A stretch of DNA of 60,000 nt from Botryllus schlosseri (lineage: Eukaryota), in contig CM119372.1 in assembly GCA_051294905.1 (NCBI GenBank), forward strand, positions 6,636,001 through 6,696,000, in the 5' to 3' direction. Positions within the stretch are counted from its first letter, which is position 1. Each line of letters begins with the position of its first letter. Positions 1-60,000 of this stretch are shown here, in pieces. A program made the translations under genes and the position numbers. Below the pieces are notes generated by a model, which was not told where the DNA came from, did not search any database, and worked only from the letters and a program-made list of their open reading frames with translations.

Positions 1-415
1 AAAAGCGATGAGGCATATCGGAATCGCAACGCAGCAAGAGGGAATCAAAATGGTAGGAATGCATCTTGCCGTTATGTATAAACCGGAAATGCTTTCAAAT
101 AACTTGGTTCCTTTGCAGCATTTCTATCAAACACAAATCAGGATCGGCTATATCGATTGAGGAGGTATTCCGAGGGTACCGCAACGAGTCTGGACTCAAT
201 CAACAGAGACAGCGTTGCAGCCGATCGTTTAAGACAATCACTTACTGGGTAAGTTTTCGCCAAAGGGAGCATTTTTCAGCTTCTTCCGAATCACCACAGC
301 GAATCAGCTTTCCCCGCAATCATTTGGCAGAAGATGGTCTTCCACACGCAACCCTTCCTATTTACCCGGGCTTGAAACCGGCACTGGTTTTAGTGACCAA
401 CGAATGGATTCTTGA
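1..415 (+). CDS. 5'-partial glucagon/secretin/PACAP-superfamily peptide precursor (gene A); exons <1-52, 119-248, 331-415; ...KSDEAYRNRNAARGNQNAFLSNTNQDRLYRLRR|YSEGTATSLDSINRDSVAADRLRQSLT|GRWSSTRNPSYLPGLETGTGFSDQRMDS*
   Basis: Splice sites AATG|GTAGGA (52/53), CTTTGCAG|CA (118/119), GG|GTAAGT (248/249) and TTTGGCAG|A (330/331) give consistent phases (1, then 2). A furin-type RLRR site precedes a 27-aa peptide (166-246) beginning YSEGTxTS and followed by G-R (amidation/monobasic site). The last acceptor is the least certain. Confidence 0.8.
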
Positions 416-472
416 GGGAAGGCCATCGGGATGTAAGACCTCTGATTTGCTGAACCACAGATGTAACCATTA

Positions 473-993
473 AAGGGGTAGGGCACTCTAAAAATGATGT
501 GGTCTCAAATTGAAGAGCAAAACGAAAAAGAATTTGGCCGCAGCCGTTTTCTTCAGAACGCCACCATAATGGAACTGCAATTTATTAAAATTTCCACAGC
601 AACTTCACGCTATAGCAGTCACGCAGAGATCAAACTTTATATATTTGTCAGCCGATGTTATGAAGCAAATATGTCGTACACGCGCTATTTCCCAAAGAAA
701 TAGAATGCACTAGGCCCGATTTTGACATAAATCTCCTGACTCAACATCTTCCGTTGAACGCGGTATCTAAACCACCTTGGCGTGTACGACATATTTCCTT
801 CATAACATCGGCTGACAACTATATAAAGTTCGATCTCTGCGTGACTGCTGGAGCGTGAAGTTGCTGTGGAAATTTCAATAAATTCCAGCTCCATTACGGT
901 GGCGTTCTGAAGAAAATGGCTGCATCCAAAAACGAAAATTTCGTTTCGCCCTTCAATTTGAGACCACATCATTTTTAGAGTGCAGTGCCCCTT
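473..993. mobile_element. Palindromic MITE with ~200-bp inverted arms
   Basis: GCACTCTAAAAATGATGTGGTCTCAAATTGAAG... (483 onward) is mirrored by ...CTTCAATTTGAGACCACATCATTTTTAGAGTGC (ending 983). This explains the two near-identical opposite-strand ORFs 494-703 and 685-972. Confidence 0.9.
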
Positions 994-3900
994 AGCTTTA
1001 GTTTTAGGTAGTATTTAATAAATGACTACTACCTATATCAAAATGTTCAATGCATTCTAAATGGGGTTGGGGTGCTAGGTGATATGTTCGAGGTGTGAAA
1101 TCCAACTAACATGAGATTTTCCTGAACCGAAACAAATGGCCATGATAAACCTACTATTCTACTCCCGCTAAATGTGATTCAAATGTACCGATGGGCGATG
1201 GTATCGCTACTAATACAGCATTTCAAATTGAATTACCTTTTTTACAGACCAGCCACAGGCGGCTTGATCGATAAGCAATGTCTCATGGAATATCTTCCTA
1301 CAATTGTCTCCGACTACACGTTTAATTATGCAATTTCGATATGTACACTTTGAGTAATCACATTCCCGAATATCAGCATTCATACACTGCCGCCTATATA
1401 CTGTGTCGTTTATAATTTATTTATCTGCATACTTCAAATATATTTGTCTACGTGATCAACAAGACTGATCAATGTTCAATGCTCATCGTAGATAAGGCCG
1501 TTTCCTTCGTGATCAAAATCACGAAATTTTATATCGCGGGCAATCCGGTATACAATGGTTTAGAAATGGGCACACGTATGGTTTGATATAGGCAATCACC
1601 AGAAAACGTTCCTATGATATCAGTTTGAGTATCTTGCCACGACGCCAGGCGACAGAGGGCAAAACACGGAATGCGATTAGAAAGTGTCGAAATATAGTGC
1701 CCGAGACATCACAAGATATATTGACGTACCTACAAACAAATTCCTCGCTGTTCAATGTCACAACTTTTACCAAAATATAAATACAAGAGAACAGTGAACA
1801 TGAATACACATGGCACATATGTACGAATGATACATTTGAACCCGTATCCACCATGCAGGATGCAGCACTACTATGGCGCACAAAAGCATCCATGAATTTT
1901 ACTTTGACTAGAGTCTATTGTTTGAGATTTGTCATCATAATAATACTGATTTGGATGCTATATTTTACCTAATATTTCAATACTGATAATTCTAACTGGC
2001 GTATATGTATCGCATATGCTATCATATACATATACATCTCCGAATGAAAGGCATTCTGTTGAGTTCGTGATGGTTCATCCATTCATCAGACGCTCGTTCC
2101 GAAAATGGTTAGGGAAAACTCGCAAGACTTGTAACTTAATAGCCCGCGTTTCTCAGCCGACGGGATCAACATGATAAAAAAATAGTCTACCCATTTCATT
2201 TCTCGATTTGAAGGAAGTTGTATTGTAATTTGATGTGAGAAGGTTTTTGTCAGTCACAAACTTACGCACAAGAACACAGCATTTTCAAGAAGCTTACCAC
2301 ATTAAAATTTGACTTGGATGAGTAACCTGCGCAAGTTCACAATGGACATACAAACGATGTTTCTTAGTATATATAAGGCTCACAAGCAACGATAAAATAT
2401 GATGTATGCAGCGATTTCACCAAGATGACGTTGGCTTATTTGTCAGTAAGTGCGAATGTTGCGACATTTCACTCCGAATTCACTTTATACCGCCCGGCCT
2501 GGACCATAGGCCTACACTAGAAAAAGTGAAACATTGTCACCATACGTCAGCATCGCACACCACAGAACAAAAAGTTAAAACACGGACACAAAAGGTTGTT
2601 AAAATCGCATCGAAATAAAAATGACGGCTGAATTTTGTGAAGTGGCGGGGAAGAGATTTTTCACAGTCATTGTCGTAGTTTTCGCTACGAAACATATGCG
2701 ATGAATACAACACTTCGTTATTACTTATATACCATGAAGAATTCAAAGGAAATAAAACCCCCATTGATCCTCACTGCCTTTTCGTTGGTAATTAATGTAA
2801 AAGCAATATCACGTGACACGTAGCCCCTCATAAAGAGTTGATGATGGAAATATACGTACGCCTATTGGAGGATTAGGAATCGTTCATATCACTGTGATCA
2901 ATTGTCAATTCGATTACTATGACCGCATGTAGATTTATCAGCAAAGGAGTTTAAAATCAATATACTGAAAATTGAAGCAGATGTTTGCAATTGTCCACAG
3001 ATTATAAGTATAAATCGTTAATGCAACACAACGATTTACTGTAGCAACCCTGCTCTTTCTGGGTGTAATGTCAAGCTAATTCGATTTGTAAACTACCGGG
3101 AGAAATCATGAACCACCAAAACTTTGAACGACGCCAGCATGGCTCCCTGCATGGACGTTGGACAAATATTACGCCATAGTGGCGAAAGGTTATTACACAA
3201 TTTCGGTAAACACAACCCCGTATGGCAAGCCCCTTGAAGAAAACTGGCGTGTACTCGGCCGGACCTATAGTCGATCCTGTGTTCCTGGCATATGATGCAA
3301 TCCTAATTTCGAATTACATTGGAAATGATGAGTCTATAGAGTGTCTGTATATTGAAAACAGTTTAACATCGTGTCACATCTTCGTCGGCTTTATCTGCAC
3401 GTGTTAAAGAGGAGTTGGTTACGCTAATTCGACCCACGCGATGGAAACACCATGAAATTCACGCAAGGTCATTCTAATTATAGTATATGAAATAAAACAT
3501 TCATTGTAAAATTTACGATCTCCACCAGCACCAGAGCTAGAACAACGGAATTCAGTTAAAAATATTTTCTCGAAGAGAAATATATATACAATTCGTTGCT
3601 AACAAATGACAACAAAACGGCTCTAAAAACACGCCCTCTGGAATCAACGCGTGGACGTGTTACTATATAGATTCTCGATGTAAGGTGAAATGGCGTTAAA
3701 GAGGCGGTAACATGTATAGATATTATTTGGCAGCAACATGTTGTTACTTGTGCTTTTCCATGTCACTGAAAGGGGCGAAAAGTTTTCAAATATACATATT
3801 GCTATGCAATTACGTATTTATTATTTACCGAAGAAATGATATTAGACGTGATTAGAATATTAGAGTATAAACTGTATATTCTTGATCCATTTTATTTATT

Positions 3901-25168: not shown

Positions 25169-25772
25169 ACTCAAGTACTATCAAAAAGTAGATTTTGTAG
25201 CGGGATAGCATACTTTTACTAGTTAATCTGATATGTGCCTATACTTTCGAGCTTGCAGGGTGCATCTTCGCGACTAATGGAATATGACTAATTTAATGAC
25301 ACTACAAATAGGAGCAATTTTCGAAATGTACAGTCGGCTACCATTATGCCAGAACAATTTCGATCAGTTATTAGGACAACTTCAGTCCTAAGAATGACGA
25401 AATATTTTCCCGAACTACAGAAAAAATCCAAACCGCAAAAAGTAAGTAGTTTTTCCGAAAAAAATGGCGGAATGAGTGCAAAAAGACACCCGGGTAATGA
25501 AAGTCGGCAAAACCTATAGTACTTTGGATAAATAGAAGTATTTCGTTACTGACCACCTGTGACTAAGTGTTCGAGACAATATGTTACTCTAAAAAATATG
25601 TATATTGTATAAACATAACGTCGCGAAGAAATACTCACATATGCGTAACGTAATACAGCACATCGGTCGCACACTATGATTGGCTGGCATCTAACAACGG
25701 GGACAATTAGATAAATACAACAGAAAAAAGGTGTGTCGTCTTTATCACGGATATCTAGATATCCCTGGTCCT

Positions 25773-25779
25773 TATAAAA
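25773..25779 (+). promoter_or_regulatory. Candidate TATA box of peptide precursor gene B
   Basis: TATAAAA ~140 bp upstream of the signal-peptide ATG at 25916. Confidence 0.55.
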
Positions 25780-25915
25780 TAAGAGTAGTTCAGACTTGCG
25801 CTCAAAGATTCATTGTGCGAAGCGCAGACTAAACAACTTGGCAAGCAAACTCCTCAAAGAAGATCCATATCGTCATAAAGTACAAATAATATTTGAGATT
25901 CTACAAAGAAAGAAA

Positions 25916-28158
25916 ATGAGAGGTGTTGCGGTGATAGGTCTTTTCGCTCTTGTTGCAGTAATCGTGCTTCAGATCGATGGTTCGCCAATATCAAGGTAAG
26001 GTGTCTTTTACATCTTTTGAGTTTGCGTTTGTGATCTGTTAGTACCTATATAGTAATGGCGTATCCTTATTGTAAATTCGCCTCTTACACGATTGCCACT
26101 ATTAGGGTAATACAGTCATCGTTGTTCCATTCTGAAAATCTGCAGTCAACTAGTGTCACGTCTTGTCGGAACTCATGATATCGGATCAATTGTTATAGAC
26201 GCGTCGCTGACACGAATCATCACACATCTCACTTCAATTTGAAACAAATATTGTCATTAAACGGGAGAGTGTATTAATGCACTTTATTTTGTTTTGAAAA
26301 GATAAGTATATCCGTACTGATGACAAGGTATTAAATAGAATTGATAAAAGACTGATCAAGGTCGGGGCGACGTGTACCTCATTACAGTACGACCCGACAT
26401 GGCTTGGTATAAATATACTAAACTGGTACACAACGCCAATAGCATCATCTGTTATAAGGGCGTGAATGTTTACAAGCGGGCGTTCTTTGAATATAATAAA
26501 AGGGCTTGAGGGGTTAGAATCGAAACGGGCCGTAGTAAAGTACCGATGACCTGAAATCGAGAATAGAGCCATTGTAACAAGACCTCCTAGGTCGCGGTTG
26601 TCGTCTCTGAATGTAAACGTGTGTGGTGTTTTATTACAGAGGGCGTGGTAATGCGACAAGCAACCACCGACGTGTCAGTTACAGAAGGGCGAGGGCCAAC
26701 CTTGTTCGGCTGCTGGAATTAAAACGGAAACCACACGTCACGAGGAATTTGCGCAGGGGTGCTCTGGAGAGAAGCAGACGCACTTCCACTCCCGGTATTA
26801 TGAGTCATTTAGTGGGGGAAGTGAGAGGTCGGAAAGCTGCGAAACAGACATTAGCGAGGTGAGGATACAAGAATAAGCTGGGGATGGGATGGCGCGAACC
26901 TGAAAGGTTCTGGTTCGCTTAAACACGAACTGTGCGAAGTGTGACCTATGAAAAAGAGGTTAATTCTAATCAAATCTACATACAATTGCTATATGTTTGA
27001 TTATTTAGCTTGACACAGATCTTAAATTTCTGCCCCCTTAATTTAGAACTCTCTTTAAAGTTTGGTGCGATATTAGTACCAGGAAAGCATTTATTTCCAA
27101 TCCCCTGTCCGTATCAAATACTGTCGAATTAGTAGTCATTAATAAGACATCAGTGTATACTAGTTGCAATTCATGAGATGTCAATCATAACGACGTGACT
27201 TAAACGTTGGTAAAATTCTTTTGGATCCAAGATCTCTTTACGCCCTTAAGGGACCCACTTTTTCACCCAATATTGTAGGGATGCTCGGGAAATTCTCGGA
27301 TACCAGGAACAATTTTGCAATACGTACCAAACATACGTTCCTTGTCACATCAGACATAGATAACTCTGTGACCACACGGGAATATAGGCCAATTATATAG
27401 CAGCGATGGAAGCGAATAATTTTATTATCAACAACTAAAACAGAGTGATATGTCATTCAAACTCCTCAAAAATCAGTATATTTTATGACATCACAAGGTT
27501 CCTCTTAGTTTTCTGTTGAATTTTCTTTCATGCTTCCATTGTGATGCAACCAATGATTAAAGTTGAAATGTAAGGAATCTTGATCACAGATGATAAGATT
27601 ATTGGGAAAAATTAGTATTTCAGAACAATGCTCACAGTGTAGTTTGTAGTGTAGAACCTACTAAAGCTCAATTGCGAAAGTCTGAATCATCGGGGTTCGC
27701 ATATCGCACCCTGATGTTGACACTACCGCAGTTATTATCAGTTTTGTCTTGCTTTAACAATAACAATAATGCGATTTGCCGTAGAAAGCCAACGGGTTAT
27801 ATCGCTACATAATCACCTCATAATATCATATGCATCCAAAAACTACAAAGTGTAAGCAATTAGATGTAGCTTTTTATAGATATCATCAAATAAAATCAAC
27901 CCAAGTTGTCTGACAGTGTGATTGCCCCAATCTAAGTAGAACATCCGTCACATTAGAGGCTCCACTCAACTGATTATAAGATAGCCTACTCTCGTTATAT
28001 TTCCTTAATCACAATAACATTATATATTTAGACTCCGACAGAGCCGCAAACAAGGGAATTTAGGGTCTCTTGCTGAGCACTGCACCCGAATGACTGACGG
28101 AGAAGCAATGATACGATGTTTGACTGAGATGGTGCAGTCGCGGAGTTCGAGCCCATGA
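25916..28158 (+). CDS. Secreted peptide-hormone precursor (gene B), 141 aa; exons 25916-25995, 26640-26858, 28032-28158; MRGVAVIGLFALVAVIVLQIDGSPISRGRGNATSNHRRVSYRRARANLVRLLELKRKPHVTRNLRRGALERSRR|TSTPGIMSHLVGEVRGRKAAKQTLARLRQS|RKQGNLGSLAEHCTRMTDGEAMIRCLTEMVQSRSSSP*
   Basis: Classical signal peptide. Strong splice sites AG|GTAAGG, TTTTATTACAG|A, AG|GTGAGG and ATTTAG|A, all phase 2. RSRR furin site. Same coding-exon layout as gene C. AATAAA at 28463-28468. Confidence 0.78.
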
Positions 28159-29368
28159 AGATCGATTTGTGACGGGAACATAAATTGAGAGGCAAAGAAA
28201 TAGTCAGAAGCTACAATTCTGGCTCTAAGACAACTCGCGCCGTTGTCTTACATGAGTCAGATACTGCGTATCATAAAAAGACGTTTCCTTTCTCGCGTGA
28301 TACTGCGCGGTAGCTTGAAGTTTCATAATAATATCTAATTTATTTCATTTTATATTTATTTAATATTTATATTTGTGGCGTATTTCAATGCAATAATAAT
28401 GTATAATAGTGCTTTACAATGATTGCGACCGAGTCTTTATGCTGCATTGAAGTTACTTTGCTAATAAATGACCGTTCTGATTGATTAAATTCAGATAAGA
28501 GCGATACGGAAACTGCTCGATAACGAATAGTTACCAATAGCAATGCTCGAATTGCAGGAGCACCATAATATTACAGATATATTGCAATCAAAGGGAGGAC
28601 CACATAACGATTGGCACCCAATTTTTACTCTACATCCGCATGTGAAATATAGTATATAAATAGTACGTATGCTATATGCAGTAGCCTATATAAATATATA
28701 AAGTAACGAAACCGCCGTGGTTCGTAAGACGGGGTTCCATCATAACATCGTCTGAAAACTGTCCAATAATCATTATTATATGTCTTGATAGCTTCGAGAT
28801 AATACACCAGTGAAGTCGATGCGACCCGGAAAGTTTGCGAAATGCCAAGAAGAAATGATCGTGAATGAAATGAAAATTCCAATAACACGCAGTAATATCA
28901 GATTAAACATTTGCCATCGTACGGCTATTTCTAAGCGATAAATAAATCCAATTTGAGTAGACCTTCGTATGTCTGAAAATACATTGTCGATGTACAGCGT
29001 ACAGAGATATAAAGATATACCTAGCTGTGATGTTATAATATGAATGTATATGTGGGAATTATTAACAGGAGATTCAGAAGAGATACACATTTTCAGTTCT
29101 ACAGATAACATCGCTCAAGTGGCATCAAAATACCGGCTTGTATATATTATTTTACATACATCACGACTGTTGATTTCGAAACTAAAGATCACTATTTTCG
29201 TATCAACCAGTGATACGTAGGCCTACCCAACTCCATACGGGTTTGTTTATACGAGTCTCCCAATTATACGTTTTCTCGAAGATGAGTTGTATCTCATGGT
29301 AAAGTTGTCTTAATACGACAGTTTTATATTGGAGAATGGGAGTGTGATCATTCCATGTGAACAAGCAG

Positions 29369-39659: not shown

Positions 39660-41713
39660 CAATGTAAAAAATCTGGTAGATTAACTTGGAAATCTCTGTA
39701 AATTTTACAACGAATTACCAGTCGCAGCCAATAACTGTGCGTGGCTTGTAATTATACATTTTGATATGTAGTATTACCTTAGTTTAGCTGTGAAGTCAAG
39801 TTACCAGAATTTCGTCGCAAAATTACTGACAGTTACTCGTAACTGCAGTTTACCAGGCCATTGAAAAGATTGATTAGCTTAATAATCGCTGCAGCCAATA
39901 TATACGTGGAACTGAATGTTACTGAGATATCATTCTTGTGGTGATTTGACCTGATTCAACCTCGTTCGTGAAGCTGGGGTGTGTCGCACGGAAATTGTTG
40001 GCCCTAATAGTACCAATTCCAGTATAGTACATAGTAGGGTTCAAGAAACAACTGACAATCGTAGCAAATGTGGTTACACCATAGCAATTATATTATATTA
40101 TAAAGCTATATGGCTATACGGCCGTTCTCGCTGGTTACATTCGTTGTTACGGATAGGGCTGATAAGTTAGGAAATCAGTTTAGGTTGTTAATTATTGTTC
40201 GGGGAAATATAGACATGGCGGACAAGGCGACCTGTAACACCCGTTAGTCCGTTACTGGTTTTCTGAGATTCGTAGTAAACAACCAACGCGCAACTGTGAC
40301 ATCACAAGCATCGTCTCGTTAAGTAAGTACAGTAAGTAGTGAACAACACTTGGGATAAATATCAATTTATACGAAATTAGATGGAAAAGAAAGGGACTAT
40401 ATGTAATGGTGAATGTTTCGGTATGAAAAAGAAATGACCTAAGTCAAACATTATAACGTGGTCAGTAAATATTATTTGTGGCATGTCAGCGGATGAATAC
40501 CACTACTTTCGAAATCGTTCGAGTGTCGTATCGTGATCGTCGTCTGGCCATTATTGAGTTGAGAAAGGGTGGAGCGAAGTTTGTTGTGCTTGAAGAAAGT
40601 GGACACGATCGTGGAAGATTCCTAGGAACGCTAAATGGGATACGCATCGTACAAGATACAGTAGGCTACTGCATAGTATTTGTTACCGTGAATATCTGCG
40701 ACTGTGCAGTGTGCACACCACTTTGATTTCATGACTGAAATATTTCATTCGCCGCATTCTCTGTTCTATTTTGGGATATTAGTCGACTTATATAGTGACC
40801 TGTGACACCACATACTCCGCCGCGGAGGAGTTGAAACTGTTGGCTTGATTATGTCATTTTAGGGCCATAGCATAGAGATGTTTTCATCCACTGCTGGATT
40901 TGTTTGGCACACATGCCGCCTCAATGAGGAACCTTTTGCTTCAGTACATTAGATAAAGTTAGTACCTAATGAATCTCTGCTATATCATGTACAAGGCGGA
41001 GCCTTCATCACACAACGTACCAGTACCGGTACTTCAAAACATGTTGTATTTTTGTTAGCCCATTTGTCTCAAGTCTTTATAATGTCATGGCTAGGTTAGG
41101 AACTTTGCTTTATATAGCGACTTACTCATGAATTCTTTTTAGTGGAACTGCAAGATACTAGTTACACAAGGAATGAGGACGAAAAAAAGAAACAATTGGA
41201 AGTTTGGCCGGTGGTGGAATTAATTCACCTTTTCGTGAGACCACTCGTGTTACTGCATGTCTCATAAAGAAGAATTAGACCTCCAGTAGCAATACTTTCC
41301 CATCGATAACCACTTCATCGTGATATCATGAATGAATATACAGTTTGTTCCAATGTCGTTTTGGGAATGTGAAGAAATTTTTTTGATATTTTAGCATCGG
41401 GTTGCTTTGCGATAGGTATGGATGTACGTGAATTTACAAGCTGGTATGTAATCCTGATTTACAGGGACAGCATGTAGGTAGGTAGGCGGTAAAATGACAG
41501 TATCGGTCGCAAATGTACAGGAGAATATGTAGATTGGATATACCGGAGGTAACTGTAACATTACAATCTGGCGTGTAAAGTGAGATTACTGGACGAGTGT
41601 AAGTTAAATTTACATCGACTAACGGTAATGTCACATTACCACGAAATGTCTGGCACTGGCTACCGTGCTTCCAAACATTTCGCGGTAAATCGAGGTTTTT
41701 ATTTTTTACAGTG
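39660..41713. mobile_element. ~2-kb non-autonomous CACTG-ended (EnSpm/CACTA-like) element, copy 1
   Basis: Ends CAATGTAAAAAAT/ATTTTTTACAGTG; collinear over its whole length with 51905-53947; no transposase ORF. Confidence 0.85.
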
Positions 41714-42775: not shown

Positions 42776-43321
42776 ATGAAAACCTACATCACACTAATCG
42801 CAACCATTATTCTTGTCTGCGCATTGGACTCGTGTCTATCGAATCCATCCAGAAGGTAAGTGAACCATCGAGTGATTTTATAAAAGTGCATATCAAATAT
42901 TTTTATATTTTTTGAGCAGAATAGAAAGGAATGAAAATCGCATTCCAGCTGGTGCTGACTCGGAACGGGATCCAAGTCTCCGACGATCGCGCCGTCACGC
43001 AGATGGAATGTTCAGCCACGTTCGCGGGAACGCGCAAGAGACCAAATCAGTACATAGATTCCATCAAGTTATGAGCCCAAGGTATAGAATCATCGAATAT
43101 ATTCTTCTCCCTTCTGGGAGCAGATTTAAATTGGTACATGCTATCCTAATCTGCAACCGCTATTTTCTATATACAGGAAGCGAAAAAGCATTGCTACGTA
43201 CCCGCCAGTTTTACGAGACTGTATTGCGAAGAAATGCAAAAAGAGCAAGAGACACATAACGAACCGCAAAATAAAATTGTGGGCGTCCAAATGTCTCAAA
43301 TACCTTATCCGCCATTCATGA
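42776..43321 (+). CDS. Glucagon/PACAP/GHRH-superfamily peptide precursor (gene C), 128 aa; exons 42776-42855, 42920-43081, 43177-43321; MKTYITLIATIILVCALDSCLSNPSRRIERNENRIPAGADSERDPSLRRSRR|HADGMFSHVRGNAQETKSVHRFHQVMSP|RKRKSIATYPPVLRDCIAKKCKKSKRHITNRKIKLWASKCLKYLIRHS*
   Basis: Signal peptide; phase-2 introns (AG|GTAAGT...GAGCAG|A and AG|GTATAG...TATACAG|G). RRSRR precedes HADGMF, the hallmark H-x-D-G-x-F N-terminus. Splicing creates an RKRK site directly after the 28-aa peptide (42996-43079). Confidence 0.85.
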
Positions 43322-51904: not shown

Positions 51905-53947
51905 CACTGTAAAAAATCTGGTAGATTTACTGGGAAATCTCTGTAAATTTTACCACGAATTACCGGTCGCAGCCAATTACTGTGCGGAGCTTGTCATTTT
52001 ACATTTTGATATGTAATATTACCTTAATATAGCTGTAAAGTAAGTTACCAGAATTTCTTCGCAAAATTACTGACAGTTACTCGTTACTGCAGTTTACCGA
52101 GCTATTGGCAAAATTGATTAGCCTCAAAATCGCTGCAGCCAATGTATACGTAGAACTGAATGTTACTGATATATCATTCTAGAGGTGATTTGACCTGATT
52201 GAACCTCGTTTGCGAGACTGGGGTCTGTCATACCGAAATTGTTGGCCCTAGTATCAATTTAAGCTTAGTATGGTACAAGAAATAACTGACAATCGTAGCT
52301 AATGTGGTACACCGTAGCCAGATTATATTATAAGGCAATGGCTGTACGGCCAGTCTCGCTGGTTACATTCGTTGTCACGGATAAGGCTGATAAGTTAGAA
52401 AATTAGTTCAGGATGTATAATATTGCTCGGGGAAACTAGAAATATCAGCACCGCATGCTCAGCTGACCATTTGTTAATGGCGGACAAGGCGACCTAGGTT
52501 ACATTAGGTGACTGCTTTTTCTGAGATTCGTAGTAAACAACCAACGCACAACTGTGACATCACAAGTAGCGTCTAGTTAGGTAAGTACAGTAAGTAGTGA
52601 ACAACACATGGAATATATATCAATTTATACGAAATTAGATGAAAAAAGGGACTATATGCAATGATAAATGTTTCTGTATGGAAAAAACGACCCAGATCAA
52701 ACATTATAACGTGGCCAGTAAATATTATTGGTGTCATGTGTCAGCGGATGAATACCATTTATTTCGAAATCGTTCGAGTGTCGTCTGGCCAGTGGCCATT
52801 AGTGAGATTTGAGCAAAGGGTGGAGCGAAGCTTGTTGTGCTTGAAGAAAGTGGACACGATCGTTGAAAATTCCTAGGAATGCTGAATGGAATACGCATCT
52901 TAAAAGGTAATAGAGTACTACATAGTATTTGTTACCGTGAATATCTGACTCTGCACACCAGCCCTCGATGACTTAGATTTCATGATTGATATATTTCATT
53001 CGCCGCATTCTCTGTTCTATTTTGGGATATTTGTCGACTTATATAGTGACCACATACTCCGCTGCGGAGGAGTTGAAACTGTTGGCTTGGTAATGTCATT
53101 TTCGGGCCATAGCATAGATATGTTTTCATCCACTGCTGGATTTGTTTGCCACACATGCCACCTTAAATTAGGAACCTTTTGCTTCAATACAGAGATAAAG
53201 TCATGAATCTCTGCTATGTCATGTAAAAGGCGGAGCCGTTATCACACAATGTGCCAGTACCGGTACTTCAAAACATGTTATATTTTTGTTAGCCTATTTG
53301 TCTTAGTCTTTATAATGTCATGTCCACTGTCCAGGTTAGGAACTTTGCTTTATATAGACTTACGCATGAATTCTTTTTAGTGGAACTGCAAGATACTACT
53401 TATACAGAAGGAATGAGAACGAGAAAAAGAAACAATTGGAAGTTTGGCCGGTGGTGGAAATAATTCACGTTTTCTTGAGACCACTCGTGTTACTGCATGT
53501 CTCCTAAAGAAGAATTAGACCTCCAGCAGGAATATTTTTCCATCGATAACCACTTCATCGTGATATCATGAATGAATATACAGTTTGTTCCAATGTCGTT
53601 TTGGAGATGCGAAGAAAATGTTGCGATATTTTTGCATCGGGTTGCTTTGCGATAGGTATGGATGTACGTGAATTTACAAGCTAGTATGTAATCCTGATTT
53701 ACAGGGACAGCATGTAGGTAGGTAGGCGGTAAAATGACAGTCTCGCTCGCAAATGTACAGGAGAACATGTAGATTAGGTATACCGGAGGTGACTGTAACA
53801 TTACAGTCTGGCGTGTAAAGTGAGATTACCGGACGAGTGTAAGTTAAATTTACATTGACTAACGGTAATGTTAGATTACCACGAAATGTCTGGCTACCGT
53901 GCTTCCAAACATTTCGCGGTAAATCGAGGTTTTTATTTTTTACAGTG
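51905..53947. mobile_element. ~2-kb CACTG-ended (EnSpm/CACTA-like) element, copy 2
   Basis: TIRs CACTGTAAAAAAT/TATTTTTACAGTG flanked by TA on both sides (2-bp TSD); direct-orientation homolog of 39660-41713. Confidence 0.88.
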
Positions 53948-56073
53948 TACATATCGCGTATATCAAGGGTTCTTAAACGGGGGTCCGTGGACAGTGGACA
54001 CCTTGTGGTACGAGGAACCAAATCACTAGATGCATCGTTGAATTATAGACGCAAAAGCCCACAAAAAGTGGAATATTTTCCAGCCAGACGCATTCAGCTC
54101 GTAACTTTTATTCGCGCTAGGCGCGATTTCATATCAATGGTCTTTTTGATTTTAATATAGGTACCGTCACACGCTGTGTTAAAAACGACCAAGGGTACGA
54201 GAAATGTTTTTGAAAGTTGAGCGCGAAAAAAGGCTACGAAGCACTGGCGTATACGTCGAGCGCGCTTAGCAATCTCGCAACGATTCCTAGCAACAATTGC
54301 GGAGCCATTCGTGTTTATCGCAGTTTATCGTGTTCATTGGATAGCGAGCTACTAACAGCGTGCTGTTTTGTCATCCTTGTCTACCATACCAGAGCAACAT
54401 TACAGATAAAGCAGTCGTAGCGACTAGATGTCGTAAACTACAGGGAATGTCGAAAATGGTAGGTGATTTCCCATTCAGTTTAGGATCAAGTAATCTACCG
54501 CTGCACAGTACGCATCATACAAAGGACGTAGAGAAAACAAATCGCGGTTCCTCATCCCACGAATAATCGAGTCCAACGAGCCGCAACATAAAATGTCTCC
54601 TAAATTAACCATCATATTTCATCACTATGATTGAGATTCTACTCAGTACTTTAGAAATACACATGTGAAAGGAAGAGAACATTATTTGTCGATAAAGTAG
54701 TAATGAGTATTGGCAATGAGGATGGCAACTGGCGTCAACGAAGTAACACTCAATGTGATGTCATAGAAGTAGTAACGGCGAAAACCAAGTAGTCCGTCAT
54801 CGTACGTAGAGTGTGTCGATGAATTTCGAGCAAAAAGGAAGCGAGGAAAAATACAGAACGATTTGCAAGGCTGCGCGGTGCCCACTCCTAATCGCAGAGA
54901 GCGATGACGACCATCACACAGACAGCAGTATCAAAAAGGCAATAAAGTATAAAAACATACACTAAAAGTAGCACCAGTTTTAGAAAGCCAACACGGCGCT
55001 TCCAGACATATGAAGTATCAAGGCATAAAACAGTAGCTAATAGCAATTGCGTGAAAAGTCAACATAACAGATAGAAAAGTAATGTACAAAAAGGCAAATG
55101 GTGTATGGCATATAAGACATACGGACCGCAAGAAGTAACACTCTCAAGAGTCCGCACTTGCTAGTAGACATCTCGATTTTGACGACTGGTCGTCCGATTC
55201 CTTATCAGACTTGACAATATACCCAGCCGTTTCTCTGGGAGCGTAGTATGGAAGCTCTTCCGGAGGAGCTATCTGTAAGTCCAGGAATAATGTTGCATTT
55301 ACTATCATGAGAGTACGGTTATATGTGAACGACCATGGCTTAGTAAGAGTAGCGTCAAAAATGAAAACCCAGGACAACGCCTAACGCCGCACTAAGAATA
55401 AGGGCCTGCCCGTAATATTTTACGACTGATCATGATCATTCGCGATAGATGGGAATAAATGACAATGTCCCCACGAAACTGGACATTTCAAACTTTTCGG
55501 TGCCACCTTTCCCGCACTGAATACGAGACAAAATCGCTTCAGCACGATGGTGCTACAGATGCATCGCGACGAAACGAAAAGAATGATTTCACAATCACCA
55601 GATCGATAATTCGAGGGGCTAGAGCACATTTCGTGTGCACTAGCTTGTGGTTTTGGCGGCAGGCAATCAGGCATAATGTAACAGGGTTATGTCATAAAAA
55701 CTTATCGTACTTTGATTCCTCAATGTATCGCCGAGGTTGTATTGCTGATTCCATGAACATGAGATTCTGATAACATAATAATTATCCAGGTCTTTATACA
55801 ATAACTGGTACACAGCGCCTAGTGTGGTGTTTTTACATCTAGTAGTACCGTATTGGTATATACTGGTAACTCATTCCAGAGAAATTCATCAATTCACGCT
55901 GTACTTCACGGTTTCTGGTTACCAAATGGTGATTCACAGAAAATCAAGTCTGGGGACTCGAAAACGCCAGACGCCACAATCCCAGCCTAAAACCGGTTGG
56001 TACTTGGTAGTATATTCTAGGGGAATACTAATGGCCAGGCTCACAAAACGACGTAGCCACAAATTTGAAGTGT

Positions 56074-59000
56074 TCAATTGCCTTCCAGGATAAAGGGTAG
56101 GTAGAATTTCTACACAGAACAGAAATCCGACAAGATTGAAGCGGGTAGAAAAGCCAGCTCACATGACTTCGCGCTTTGTTAAGAGTCTTTTTAACTCTCA
56201 GCATGGTAAGCCTCGCAGAAGCCCTTTGACACCACATTTCCCTCATCAATTTAACCAGTGTAATCATCGCCTGTTAAAACAAATCGATTTCTAATTTAGG
56301 AAATTGATTGATTGCGTCCATAAAGTGATATAGATCAGTGGTTCTCAACCGCCAGGTATATTACAATTTCATACCTTTATTTCAAGATGCAATGTTGAAG
56401 GCAACAAGTACAGAACAGATAAGAGCTGGCTCATCGCTAAACAGCGCAGTTTGCGCGATAAATCGATTTCGATTCTTTCATTTTGTGCAGGACCGTAACT
56501 GGGGCACCCCAAACCGCCCAATTCGAGAGGGGGCGAGCTTGAAAAGGTCCAAAAATTATTTTGCAAATGAACATAACTCAGAGCGATTTTTTTTTGAAAC
56601 TTTTCCCAACATGTTTCAATTTCTTATTGCGCGATTTAGTGTCACCAAATGCCTTATTGCTTGTAGGTGCCCTTCTCCGAGAGAGGCATGTCGGCGTCAG
56701 TCATTAACGCGCCACGACGTACCATCACATAATAAAGTTTAGGCTAACATGGGACTCCGAAAGTTGTGCCAAAAATTCGGAAGCGAGAAAACTGATTCAG
56801 TCATGAATGATCGAAAATTTTCGCCATTGGCGCGATTAAGCTACATAAACTCTGTGCTTACACTGAGTGGAAGGAATATGCTCACAAGTAGAGGTGGAAA
56901 CAACCACCCGACCGGAGGGTCTGGGGGCGAAGCCCCCGGAAGTTTGGCTTATCGCCCTGTAGGGCCAAATACCAACGTTTTTGGGTTTGGGCCGACGAAG
57001 AAATTCTTCAGCTCGGATTTGCGCATGGCCGGTATAGCTGCTGTAAGGTGTTTTTCTTGCGGCAAGCATTGTTTTCGTAGTTGCCAGAGTAGCCTGCGTC
57101 TGGTGACGGTGGGCAATGAGCAAGGTAGCACGACAAGGGTCTTGGTTCTACTCCGAAACGGCCTTCGGCGCGAAAGACTGTACACGACTCTCGACCGTAG
57201 CACGTTTATCTAGACAAGGAAATTTTACCTCTACTCAGCAGACTCACTAGACACTAGGTACCATAAAATTACATGGATGCCACCATGAAGATAATTAATT
57301 ACGATCAAAACCCTCTAAATGTCACTTTCTAGCACCATATAATTGCAATTTGGCATCATTTCAATTTTGAAAGTTCACCGGTCCACCTGACATTTTTTGA
57401 AATTTTACCGGTCCGCGAGGTGAAAAAGGTTGAGAACCACTGATATAGATCATAAGATTGTTCCAAACAAATTTTCAAGTTGATAAGTATTGCCCGGTAA
57501 GTTACCTGCCACTGCCTGCATTTCACATTTTCCTTCATCGATATTGTACTATAAACTGTGCTGCCGATAAATTCATCAACACTCGCTTGATGACACACAC
57601 ACTTGCAAGCTCAATTACAAAGCAGATTGCCTTTATCCGCACCAACCTAGGTCATTGATCCGGATAGACACAATAAAAGCTAGATAACCATGCTGACGAC
57701 GTGGTGTAAATGTGATCATTTGGAATTGTGGAAAATACAGCAGTAGACATTTCAATTGGTTGTTACATAAAAGTGGACTGGCAATAACAACACATATTCT
57801 TATTTGACCGCAACACCTGTCATCTAAAAGTACTCCCACATTCTAGGAAACCAACATTTTCAACAGCTGCAGAGAACAGATAGCAACAGGCACATGTCTA
57901 TTCAAAATACCATCGCATTTCATCGTGAACATCATGGATTTCTGACCTGCTTGATATAAGAGTAAATGAGCGGCTGGACTCTCTGAACATCTATTATTAT
58001 AACAGGTGAAGTCCGGCCTGACAGAAAACTGCCTTGAATTAAATTTGATTCAGTCTGCACTTCAGAAAACCACATTTCCAATTCTCCTCAATTTTCCTAT
58101 CCAGAGAAATAAAATAAGTGAACTGTGCACAAAAACAACTTACACATAGACACAACCTTTCCTGAATTCGCTATCGTGAATAAGTGCTGCAAAACCGACT
58201 AAATCTACATCATACTGCGACTCAATCTATATCTACTATGTACTCACAAATAGAAACTCTTCCTGATCCCATATCACTAATTCCATATTGAAGAACAGGT
58301 CAAAACCATACCTCATCATATCGCCAACTGACCGGGATGACAGGCCGATATTCATCATCACACACTATTTTTCGCATTTCTTCGAAACTTGGATCATGCC
58401 CAACAACGTCAAAGTAGGGAGGTTGGTATTCTTCTGTGATACCTAAACAGGGTGTGGTCTGTTTAGTATTAATCACGGAGCACACTAGATTGAATAATTC
58501 CACCATTAACAATGCGTCTATCGAAAGTGATATGACAGCCATATGATCATCTTCTGTATTTTCGATAAATGAAAACATTTAGATCACTTTTATGTAGCAG
58601 AATATAATAAAACAGCAGGACACTAATGGTATGATTGTCAACAGGGAATGAAGAAATTCCATATAGGCTACCAAGTGGTATATTATGAAGATAACTATGT
58701 GGAGACATTGAGGGGAGAAGTCTGCTTCTAGCTAAGTGTTTCACAAATCTCATGATACTACTGAAAACACAACATTTTTACAAAGATTGAATAGTATATT
58801 CATATTGAAATAAACCCAAATATTTTCGGCTGACACTCGTCAGGGCTAATCGTCAGCAACTAGTAGAGAATTGCTGGCTACTAGTTGCTGACGATTACCC
58901 CTGACGAGTGTCAGCCGAAAAGATTTGGGTTTATTTCAATATGAATATACTATTCAATTGTATATTGAAGTTCTGTACCTCCAAGAAGCTTTTACAAAGA

Positions 59001-59737
59001 TGAAACATGATTATGGTACTGAAAAGTGGTAGCTTGTAAACTGCAATTTAGCAGTAAAGCATGGTATAGGCAGAACAGTTAATAAAAATACATATGTAAG
59101 TTTTGAGCAAATCCTTGCTAACCTTCAATGGAGCATCTTCGCGCTGCCTCCCAAATCACCAATCCAAATGCGTAGACATCCGCTTGCATGAAGCAGTCGA
59201 AACTGAGTGGATTTATGGTTTCATCAAGAACCTAAATTGACAAATTATAAGATCGTAGACATTGGTTCCATATTACATTGTGATATACCTCAGGTGCCAT
59301 ATACCGCTTCGTTCCCACTCTGTTATTATTTCTCCAAATATCCACAGAGTCTCCATTCTGAAGCACGGCCAAACCTGAAGAATTTAATAGCAGATCAACC
59401 TAAGAAATGCAATCCACCATCACCAAATACCCACCAAGATCTGCAATGCAGCAAGTCAAGTCGTTTTTCACCAATATATTTTTGGACTTTACATCGCGAT
59501 GCGCTATAGCAGGTTTACCCTTGAATAAATAAGGAGAATTTATGGGTTTGACATTCTTGTGTCACAACACAGCGCAATGAGCACACCAACCTTGACCCCG
59601 TCTATCCGGGTATGCAAGTGAGACAGGCCATTGCTAGCAGTCTGGCAAAGTCGTAAGAGTAACTGCTTATCCAACGTATTTCTTTGCAGGAAATCGTACA
59701 TAGAGCCCAGTGGATGGTAATAGCTGATCAACCAAAG
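56074..59737 (-). CDS. ACVR1: TGF-beta/BMP type I receptor Ser/Thr kinase, ACVR1/ALK1-2-like, 3' half; exons 59737-59591, 59519-59435, 59374-59289, 59231-59123, 58442-58312, 56270-56163 and probable final exon 56109-56074
   Basis: Spliced translation: [18 protein letters not shown]...[32 protein letters not shown]...[19 protein letters not shown]...[15 protein letters not shown]...[23 protein letters not shown]...[23 protein letters not shown]. All introns are GT-AG with consistent phases. The subfamily call rests on recalled similarity to ALK2. The final exon is uncertain; without that splice the ORF reads through to 56028. Confidence 0.93.
56336..57442. mobile_element. hAT-type element in a receptor intron
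   Basis: TIRs CAGTGGTTCTCAACC/GGTTGAGAACCACTG; TSD ATATAGAT. Confidence 0.88.
58786..58958. repeat. ~170-bp near-perfect intronic palindrome
   Basis: ATTGAATAGTATATTCATATTGAAATAAACCCAAAT...CAACTAGTAG, an 11-nt loop, then CTACTAGTTG...ATTTGGGTTTATTTCAATATGAATATACTATTCAAT. Confidence 0.9.
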
Positions 59738-60000
59738 CTAGAAACGTGAAAAATGTAAGTCTGGTTAGTGCAATCACTAGTCGCATAATTCACTTTATGA
59801 CAACTGCTGATTTAATGACCAGTACGTCTTTCCAAAACAGCACAACTATGAAAGTATAAAACCCTAAATAATAAAAACAAGAGTTGAGTAGCAAAAAGCC
59901 TAACTACCAGCAGCCGTCGATATTTCTTATTCAGATTGGCAGAAACAAAAAGGTATGGATAGGAAGAAATTTATTGTTGCAATTGAGCTAATCTTATTGT

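Follow-up and report, generated by a model that had tools for sequence, protein, structure and literature searches.

Gene B of a tandem peptide-gene cluster in Botryllus schlosseri: support for divergent paralogy with gene C, and a PTH-like register not supported above chance

Which peptides act on the class B1 receptors of tunicates, and whether the PTH and glucagon ligands have a tandem origin, are questions made testable by a group of three peptide precursor genes, here called A, B and C, in the ascidian Botryllus schlosseri. The genes lie in a 60,000-nucleotide stretch of contig CM119372.1 (assembly GCA_051294905.1, positions 6,636,001 to 6,696,000, forward strand), referred to below as the window, and positions are numbered from its first letter. 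In the initial annotation, the peptide of gene B was described as a divergent relative of that of gene C with residues in the register of PTH. We asked which of the two ligand families, if either, gene B belongs to.

Bioinformatic work has uncovered PTH-like peptides in both tunicates and amphioxus (PMC4354418), and according to PMC7251081 and PMC2880984 tunicate genomes yielded no peptide gene of the PACAP/secretin family. Ciona has GCGR-like receptors (PMC7251081), and two PTHR-like and three GLPR-like receptors were described there (PMC2396169). The PACAP/GCG system of amphioxus has been covered in several papers (PMC9049855, PMC11661445, PMC11551080), and local duplication of secretin-type receptors and ligands before 2R is an existing hypothesis (PMC5207463). 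An article on insect PTH (PMC7224569) has no passage on tunicates. A search of literature listings and text passages found no paper describing the A-B-C cluster. Mirabeau and Joly in 2013 and On et al. in 2015 reportedly dealt with amphioxus and tunicate PTH-like peptides, and the tunicate peptides already in print may include orthologs of B or C.

Gene B is a real spliced gene with three coding exons that encode 141 amino acids, including a signal peptide and an RSRR site (Table 1). The range first assigned to it took in the second and third exons and left out the exon encoding the signal peptide. Exon 2 is in phase 2 at both ends, and both joints are of the GT..AG type. Downstream of the RSRR site, G16-R17-K18 follows residue 15 of the predicted peptide as a possible amidation site, and the later basic pairs are at positions 17-18 and 31-32. 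In a single-sequence structure model, residues 51-71 of exon 2, within the peptide, are helical at low confidence (pLDDT 38-67), and the Arg-rich pro-region contains a helix at exon-2 residues 5-29 (pLDDT 74-77). Residues 1-28 of the peptide carry a net charge of +5, and the hydrophobic moment of its helix is modest (maximum 0.43, versus 0.60 for gene C).

Table 1. Positions of genes A, B and C and of the elements of gene B in the window.
Feature	Position	Strand	Remarks
Gene A	1..1353, begins 216 nt before the window	+	4 exons, 146 aa; predicted from sequence
Candidate TATA box of gene B, TATAAA	25773..25778	+	Found in the sequence; putative function
Gene B coding exon 1	25916..25995	+	80 nt; encodes a hydrophobic signal peptide; donor GTAAGG in phase 2
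Gene B coding exon 2	26640..26858	+	Arg-rich pro-region, RSRR, peptide residues 1-26
RSRR furin-type site of gene B	26770..26781	+	Cleavage predicted from the R-x-[KR]-R consensus
Predicted mature peptide of gene B, residues 1-26	26782..26858	+	Starts directly after RSRR
Gene B peptide position H9	26806-26808	+	
Gene B peptide position G12	26815-26817	+	
Gene B peptide position L24	26851-26853	+	
Gene B coding exon 3	28032..28158	+	Residues 26-67, R31-K32 pair, Cys43, Cys55, stop
Candidate polyadenylation signal of gene B, AATAAA	28463..28468	+	X1 contigs extend to 28483
Gene C	42776..43321	+	Exons 42776-42855, 42920-43081, 43177-43321; predicted from sequence
RSRR of gene C	42984-42995	+	Compared 18-mer starts at 42996

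Expression was checked by comparing four of the 24 listed sequencing runs (X1, X3, X19 and X23, of which X1 and X3 were taken as RNA by guess only) with positions 25600-28700. Transcript contigs of X1 contain both joints of gene B with GT..AG borders; exon 1 is covered by these contigs and by X19 reads, and its joint with exon 2 is present in X1. The joint between exons 2 and 3 is found in addition in X3 contigs and in two raw RNA reads of X19, and X23 provided two reads from the 3' region only. Read counts are low, with 12 in about 6% of X19 and 2 in about 13% of X23. As the assembly (496 Mb, 219 contigs) contains exons 2 and 3 once each, spliced mRNA is the best reading of the joined forms. 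Beyond position 28295, in the 3' UTR, four X19 reads diverge from the reference, which may reflect an insertion allele or another 3' exon.

Genes A, B and C form a same-strand cluster of about 43 kb. In each of them a separate exon carries the peptide and is followed, at residue 26-29, by a phase-2 intron. When both strands of the window were scanned for signal-type first exons (an ATG, a hydrophobic stretch and a donor site), only two places emerged in the 60 kb, namely those of genes B and C, each 80 nt long and ending in phase 2. Gene C encodes 128 amino acids, and its peptide begins with H-A-D-G-M-F; the peptide of gene A follows an RLRR site and begins with Y-S-E-G-T. Judged by eye, the stop-to-stop frames of at least 110 amino acids between the three genes resemble repeats or non-coding DNA.

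The final exons of all three genes (1248-1353, 28032-28158 and 43177-43321) encode cysteines, two in A and B and three in C, spaced C-x20-C in A, C-x11-C in B and C-x4-C-x18-C in C. This tail may form a separate disulfide-looped product; a similar cysteine tail is not known from vertebrate PTH or secretin precursors.

Downstream, gene C is adjoined by a minus-strand gene for an ALK1/ALK2 (ACVRL1/ACVR1)-type receptor (window 56031-60000 and L004:223-2559), whose best PDB matches have an E-value of 4e-25. Human ACVR1 and GCG are both located on 2q24, a shared location that is a weak pointer to the glucagon side for the cluster; a literature search combining ACVR1, glucagon, synteny and GIP found no paper. 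Beyond the receptor gene, a 582-aa open frame on the plus strand (L004:7438 onward) resembles, by eye, a BTB-kelch protein. Gene C is flanked by two copies of a 1.5-kb stretch (40215-41713 and 52477-53947) that are 88% identical and represent either a repeat or a trace of local duplication.

The relationship of gene B with gene C was examined from the furin-type sites outwards. The two 18-residue segments compared in the initial annotation were located at 26785 (B) and 42996 (C), each following RSRR, and with an offset of one residue they are identical at five of 18 positions (G, S, H, G and K). Anchored at the furin sites and with offsets from -2 to +2 allowed, the peptides reach a BLOSUM62 score of 25 at offset 1. 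This score, and with it the shared pattern G-x-x-S-H-x-x-G-x5-K, exceeds chance, with shuffle p-values of 0.0007 and 0.0001 in two runs, and none of 1645 null peptides (sequences directly after paired basic residues, taken from all six frames of the window and of other loci) reaches it against C. The likeness is concentrated in the first 18 residues after RSRR; over their full length the precursors align locally with only borderline significance (p 0.054), and at the DNA level the two genes are no longer similar. Exon-intron layout and anchored sequence similarity agree, and the proposal that gene B is a divergent tandem paralog of gene C, made from the peptide alignment, is supported by this comparison of sequences, the signal exon and the phase-2 introns included.

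Gene A is placed differently with respect to its two neighbors. Genes A and C align in register across 28 residues (p 0.003), and the alignment of A with B is not significant (p 0.19-0.65). The motif R-L-R-Q-S is common to residues 21-25 of A and 26-30 of B (window 26857-28046; L002:8226-8240), and the likeness around it is not significant in local alignment (p 0.27). As the motif stands at unequal distances from the furin sites of A and B, the homology of L24 of B depends on the alignment chosen.

The one-residue shift that aligns B with C also brings B onto the register of the secretin superfamily, whose prototype has been defined by 18 positions, including S8 and S11 (PMC2880984). By hand count, A matches seven of these positions, C six and the shifted B four, with binomial probabilities, assuming a match rate of 5-7.5% per site, of 2e-5 to 2e-4, 2e-4 to 1.5e-3 and 0.01-0.04, respectively. 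The four matches of B are G4, A19, K20 and L26 of the prototype (G5, A20, K21 and L27 of B), and its L24 corresponds to L23 of the PACAP-like subfamily (PMC2880984). Gene B also has the layout of a secretin-type precursor, with a signal peptide, a basic cleavage site and a peptide exon of its own. The N-terminal secretin signature is found in its paralog C; in the shifted B, the positions of H1 (or Y1), D/E3 and F6 are occupied by S, P and M, and F22 and W25 of the superfamily are lacking.

At E<=10, a profile built from A, B and C matched three PDB entries: weakly, SAR425899 (E 0.18) and tirzepatide (E 1.4), and in addition a repetitive bacterial protein. The first two are 29-residue peptides, analogues of the glucagon family, and are aligned to the profile from their residue 1. 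As the profile of B and C matched no PDB chain, these matches on the glucagon side probably rest on A and C. None of the four exon products of B and C was assigned to a Pfam family at E<=10. The genome-wide search with PF00123 returned nothing above the cut-off and none of the three genes.

Alongside the demonstrated structure, splicing, single-copy state and paralogy of gene B with C, the account that we favor, at about even chances, is that B is a secretin/glucagon-type ligand gene, a tandem duplicate with C within the A-B-C cluster. The signal peptide of the precursor would be removed and a furin-type convertase would cut after RSRR; by analogy with prohormone biology, a second cut at R31-K32 may free a helical peptide, basic and about 30 residues long, together with the Cys-loop tail, with a 15-residue amide as an alternative product if G16-R17-K18 is used. 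The peptide would bind to one of the animal's class B1 receptors in two steps, as is usual for such ligands, its C-terminal helix with L24 and L27 lying on the extracellular domain and its N-terminus entering the membrane pocket. The loss of H1, D3 and F6 may have made B a ligand of shifted selectivity or efficacy, and what was taken for a PTH register would be the secretin register preceded by one extra N-terminal residue.

Candidate receptors for both families are present in the genome. On contig C3 (9.56-9.72 Mb), a tandem cluster comprises at least three PTHR-like genes, represented by three ECD and three TM3 exons; one has PTH1R as its best PDB match (E 1.7e-9), a TM3 exon is 83% identical to that of Styela, and two more divergent genes reach 63-65%. 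In the receptor exon search, six of 14 candidates had E<=1e-8, and four were named PTH2R-like (from Clavelina, Styela at 83% and Ciona). A second class B1 cluster, of three genes apparently belonging to another subfamily, lies on contig C6 (5.33-5.66 Mb); its TM3 exon shares 47-48% identity with the PTHR-like protein of Styela and has the secretin receptor as best PDB match. A CRHR-like gene was seen by eye on C15. Under the favored secretin-type reading, the likeliest receptor of B would be one of the non-PTHR genes on C6. For the PTHR-like receptors, the exon and motif searches, which were narrow, yielded no rival candidate ligand.

The register of PTH was the central element of the earlier proposal. 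The numbering itself is correct, as H9, G12 and L24 do stand at these distances from the furin site. That it singles out PTH could not be upheld: at least three identities in one register of 24-34 positions arise with a probability of 0.16-0.30 for the composition of B (0.14-0.47 in a second calculation), and of the six residues conserved in the PTH family (V2, Q6, H9, R20, L24 and L28; PMC3009671) B has two, H9 and L24, with S2, I6, A20 and R28 at the others. A count in which none of 1078 null peptides had H9, G12 and L24 together was discarded because the positions had been chosen after the match was seen. At positions 8-10, where the family has M-H-N, L-H-D or M-H-D (PMC3009671), B reads S-H-L and the M/L-H-D/N motif is missing, as this motif also is from TIP39 (PMC4354418). 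None of the five PTH activation residues V2, E4, Q6, L7 and K13, of which Glu4 binds R233 (bioRxiv 2022.09.04.506565), is present in B, which has Pro at 4 and Met at 7. Furthermore, the mature PTH peptide is encoded on the last coding exon (PMC3009671), and the intron of B within codon 26, confirmed in transcripts, interrupts the peptide, unlike the exon of PTH 1-34.

Conservation of H9, G12 and L24, on which the register had been made to depend, was assessed within the species and failed in part, at G12, which is Ala in one allele. This allele is no bar to a PTH reading, as D-Ala in place of Gly12 is tolerated in PTH without loss (PMC13524830). G12 is missing from the conserved PTH residues named in the literature consulted for comparison and has little diagnostic weight.

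Searches aimed at PTH gave a similar picture. The PTH family model PF01279 had no match in B or C, exon by exon, a search that short divergent peptides can escape, and its single genome-wide match was below the cut-off and contained stops. All five genomic matches to a PTH-motif pattern lacked a cleavage site and lay beside stops. No PTH chain in the PDB was matched by exon 2 of B, exon 2 of C, the B+C profile or the A+B+C profile. Judged on sequence, a PTH-like register of gene B above chance is not supported, and its likeness to PTH appears no better than its likeness to secretin/glucagon peptides, so far as these comparisons go; B is accordingly placed, provisionally, in neither family and described as the diverged paralog of a peptide with a secretin-like start.

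It is worth weighing whether B, with C, could still be a tunicate PTH-lineage ligand or a true intermediate, gene A being the glucagon-lineage member; the H-x-x-G at 9-12 would then come from a PTH ancestor and the B/C pair would activate PTHR-like receptors. We consider this unlikely. It would account for H and G, two of the five residues shared by B and C, standing at 9 and 12 of PTH, sites at which the secretin prototype carries serines (S8 and S11), a coincidence of about 0.03 by hand for two of five at 6% per site; and two of six named PTH residues are about as unlikely as four of 18 secretin positions. B has the extra first residue of PTH, PTHR-like genes are present on C3, PF01279 and the motif pattern found no canonical PTH-like exon elsewhere, PTH-like peptides have been predicted from tunicates (PMC4354418), and the G12A allele is compatible. 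Against these points stand the absence of V2, E4, Q6, L7, K13, R20, L28 and the 8-10 motif, the Pro in place of Glu4, the chance level of the three identities with G12 not even fixed, the intron in codon 26, the lack of a PTH chain among the PDB matches, and the secretin-like start of C, in which H and G are also present. If this reading were true, the cluster would be a relic of the tandem duplication behind both ligand families. Quite unlikely, in our estimate, is a version in which a glucagon/GIP-type gene A stands beside two H-x-x-G genes, of which either B or C supplies the natural ligand for the PTH receptors of tunicates; the PTH and glucagon/PACAP ligands would then descend from a single tandem array that an ascidian still preserves intact, and the Cys-loop tail would have been lost in vertebrates.

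Allelic differences bear on which part of the precursor is active. In run X3, represented by one contig at depth 9, codons 12-14 read A-A-E in place of the reference G-E-V, so that three adjacent codons (26815-26823) differ at the second base (G12A, E13A, V14E). X3 diverges from the reference by 5.6-6.5% and may stem from a separate clade that carries this species name. Seven of the 11 differences in its piece of exon 2 were listed, and among these none falls across RSRR and residues 1-11 (55 nt; P 0.03-0.04, for a stretch chosen post hoc), which fits an active N-terminus of the B peptide. The listed codon changes are seven non-synonymous and five synonymous in X3, and two and one, respectively, in both X1 and X19; the ratio in X3 indicates that overall constraint is weak. 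The tail contains several non-synonymous variants, both cysteines are unchanged among the listed differences, and no frameshift, stop or indel was listed for gene B in any of the four runs.

It also seems unlikely to us that B has left the role of a class B1 ligand and that another piece of its precursor is the active product, the candidates being the 15-residue amide, the disulfide-looped tail after R31-K32 and the cationic amphipathic pro-region as a host-defence peptide. Consistent with such a product are the G-R-K after residue 15, with residues 1-11 unchanged and 12-14 all changed in X3, the persistence of both cysteines and the presence of final-exon cysteines in all three genes, as well as the modelled helix of the Arg-rich pro-region and the positive charge of residues 1-28. 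The likeness of B and C, however, lies chiefly in the 18 residues that follow RSRR, the cysteine spacing is unequal among the three genes, the tail varies non-synonymously, and no family match was found. That B is a transcribed but drifting duplicate under relaxed selection, with its PTH and secretin matches as leftovers or noise, would agree with the excess of non-synonymous over synonymous listed differences in X3, X1 and X19, the few reads and the lack of an ortholog in single-exon protein searches, but is improbable, as the gene retains its splice sites, its signal peptide and RSRR and no frameshift, stop or indel is listed even with X3 about 5.6% divergent, and such preservation despite the absence of DNA similarity to C implies long retention.

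Homologs were sought with single exons, and all of these searches had low sensitivity. A word-index protein search with exon 2 of B confirmed none of 82 candidates, which were longer proteins only, and one with exon 2 of C none of four; a full HMMER search with exon 2 of B had one match, an unrelated repeat protein. None of 598 pattern matches in metagenome contigs was confirmed, and the ESM Atlas offered nothing usable for B and, for C, only unnamed clusters below 0.9. In the PDB, exon 2 of C and exon 3 of A had no match, and the match of exon 2 of B (E 0.68) was rejected as an unrelated enzyme. A look-alike of gene C on contig C6 (L010:1501-1674, E 4.1) was likewise set aside; it has neither a signal exon nor fitting splice sites and follows an exon resembling a deaminase gene, and its resemblance to the gene C peptide is probably due to chance.

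The value of the locus lies in the cluster, mainly in A and C; the three tandem precursors provide concrete peptides to try on tunicate class B1 receptors. The PTH register of B adds little on its own, as PTH-like peptides of tunicates have already been predicted.

Compared with known systems, gene B shares with gene C an 80-nt signal exon, phase 2/2 introns, RSRR, the G-x-x-S-H-x-x-G-x5-K pattern, a basic site after residue 28-30 and cysteines in the final exon. The H-x-D-G-x-F start is kept in C only, in agreement with the earlier observation that the B peptide is without the H-x-D-G start, whereas B has a longer Arg-rich pro-region, the internal G-R-K and another cysteine spacing. With the vertebrate secretin/glucagon superfamily (PACAP-like and GCG-like; PF00123), B has in common the signal exon, the convertase site and the separate peptide exon, and C has H1, A2, D3, G4, F6 and F22; B differs in lacking H1, D3, F6, F22 and W25, in its extra first residue and in the Cys pair of its tail, which to our knowledge is not found in vertebrate secretin/glucagon precursors. 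The PTH family (PTH, PTHrP and PTH-L) resembles B in H9, G12 and L24, in the prepro layout and in a basic site after a short pro-region, and the intron inside the peptide and the third coding exon are features of B that set it apart. The PACAP/GCG peptides of amphioxus and the PTH-like peptides of amphioxus and tunicates are likewise invertebrate chordate peptides of about 30 residues, and they pair with class B1 receptors despite very low identity (10-15% to human PACAP; PMC7251081, PMC9049855, PMC4354418); the amphioxus PACAP/GCG peptides a, b and c are encoded by one gene, whereas the Botryllus cluster comprises three one-peptide genes in tandem.
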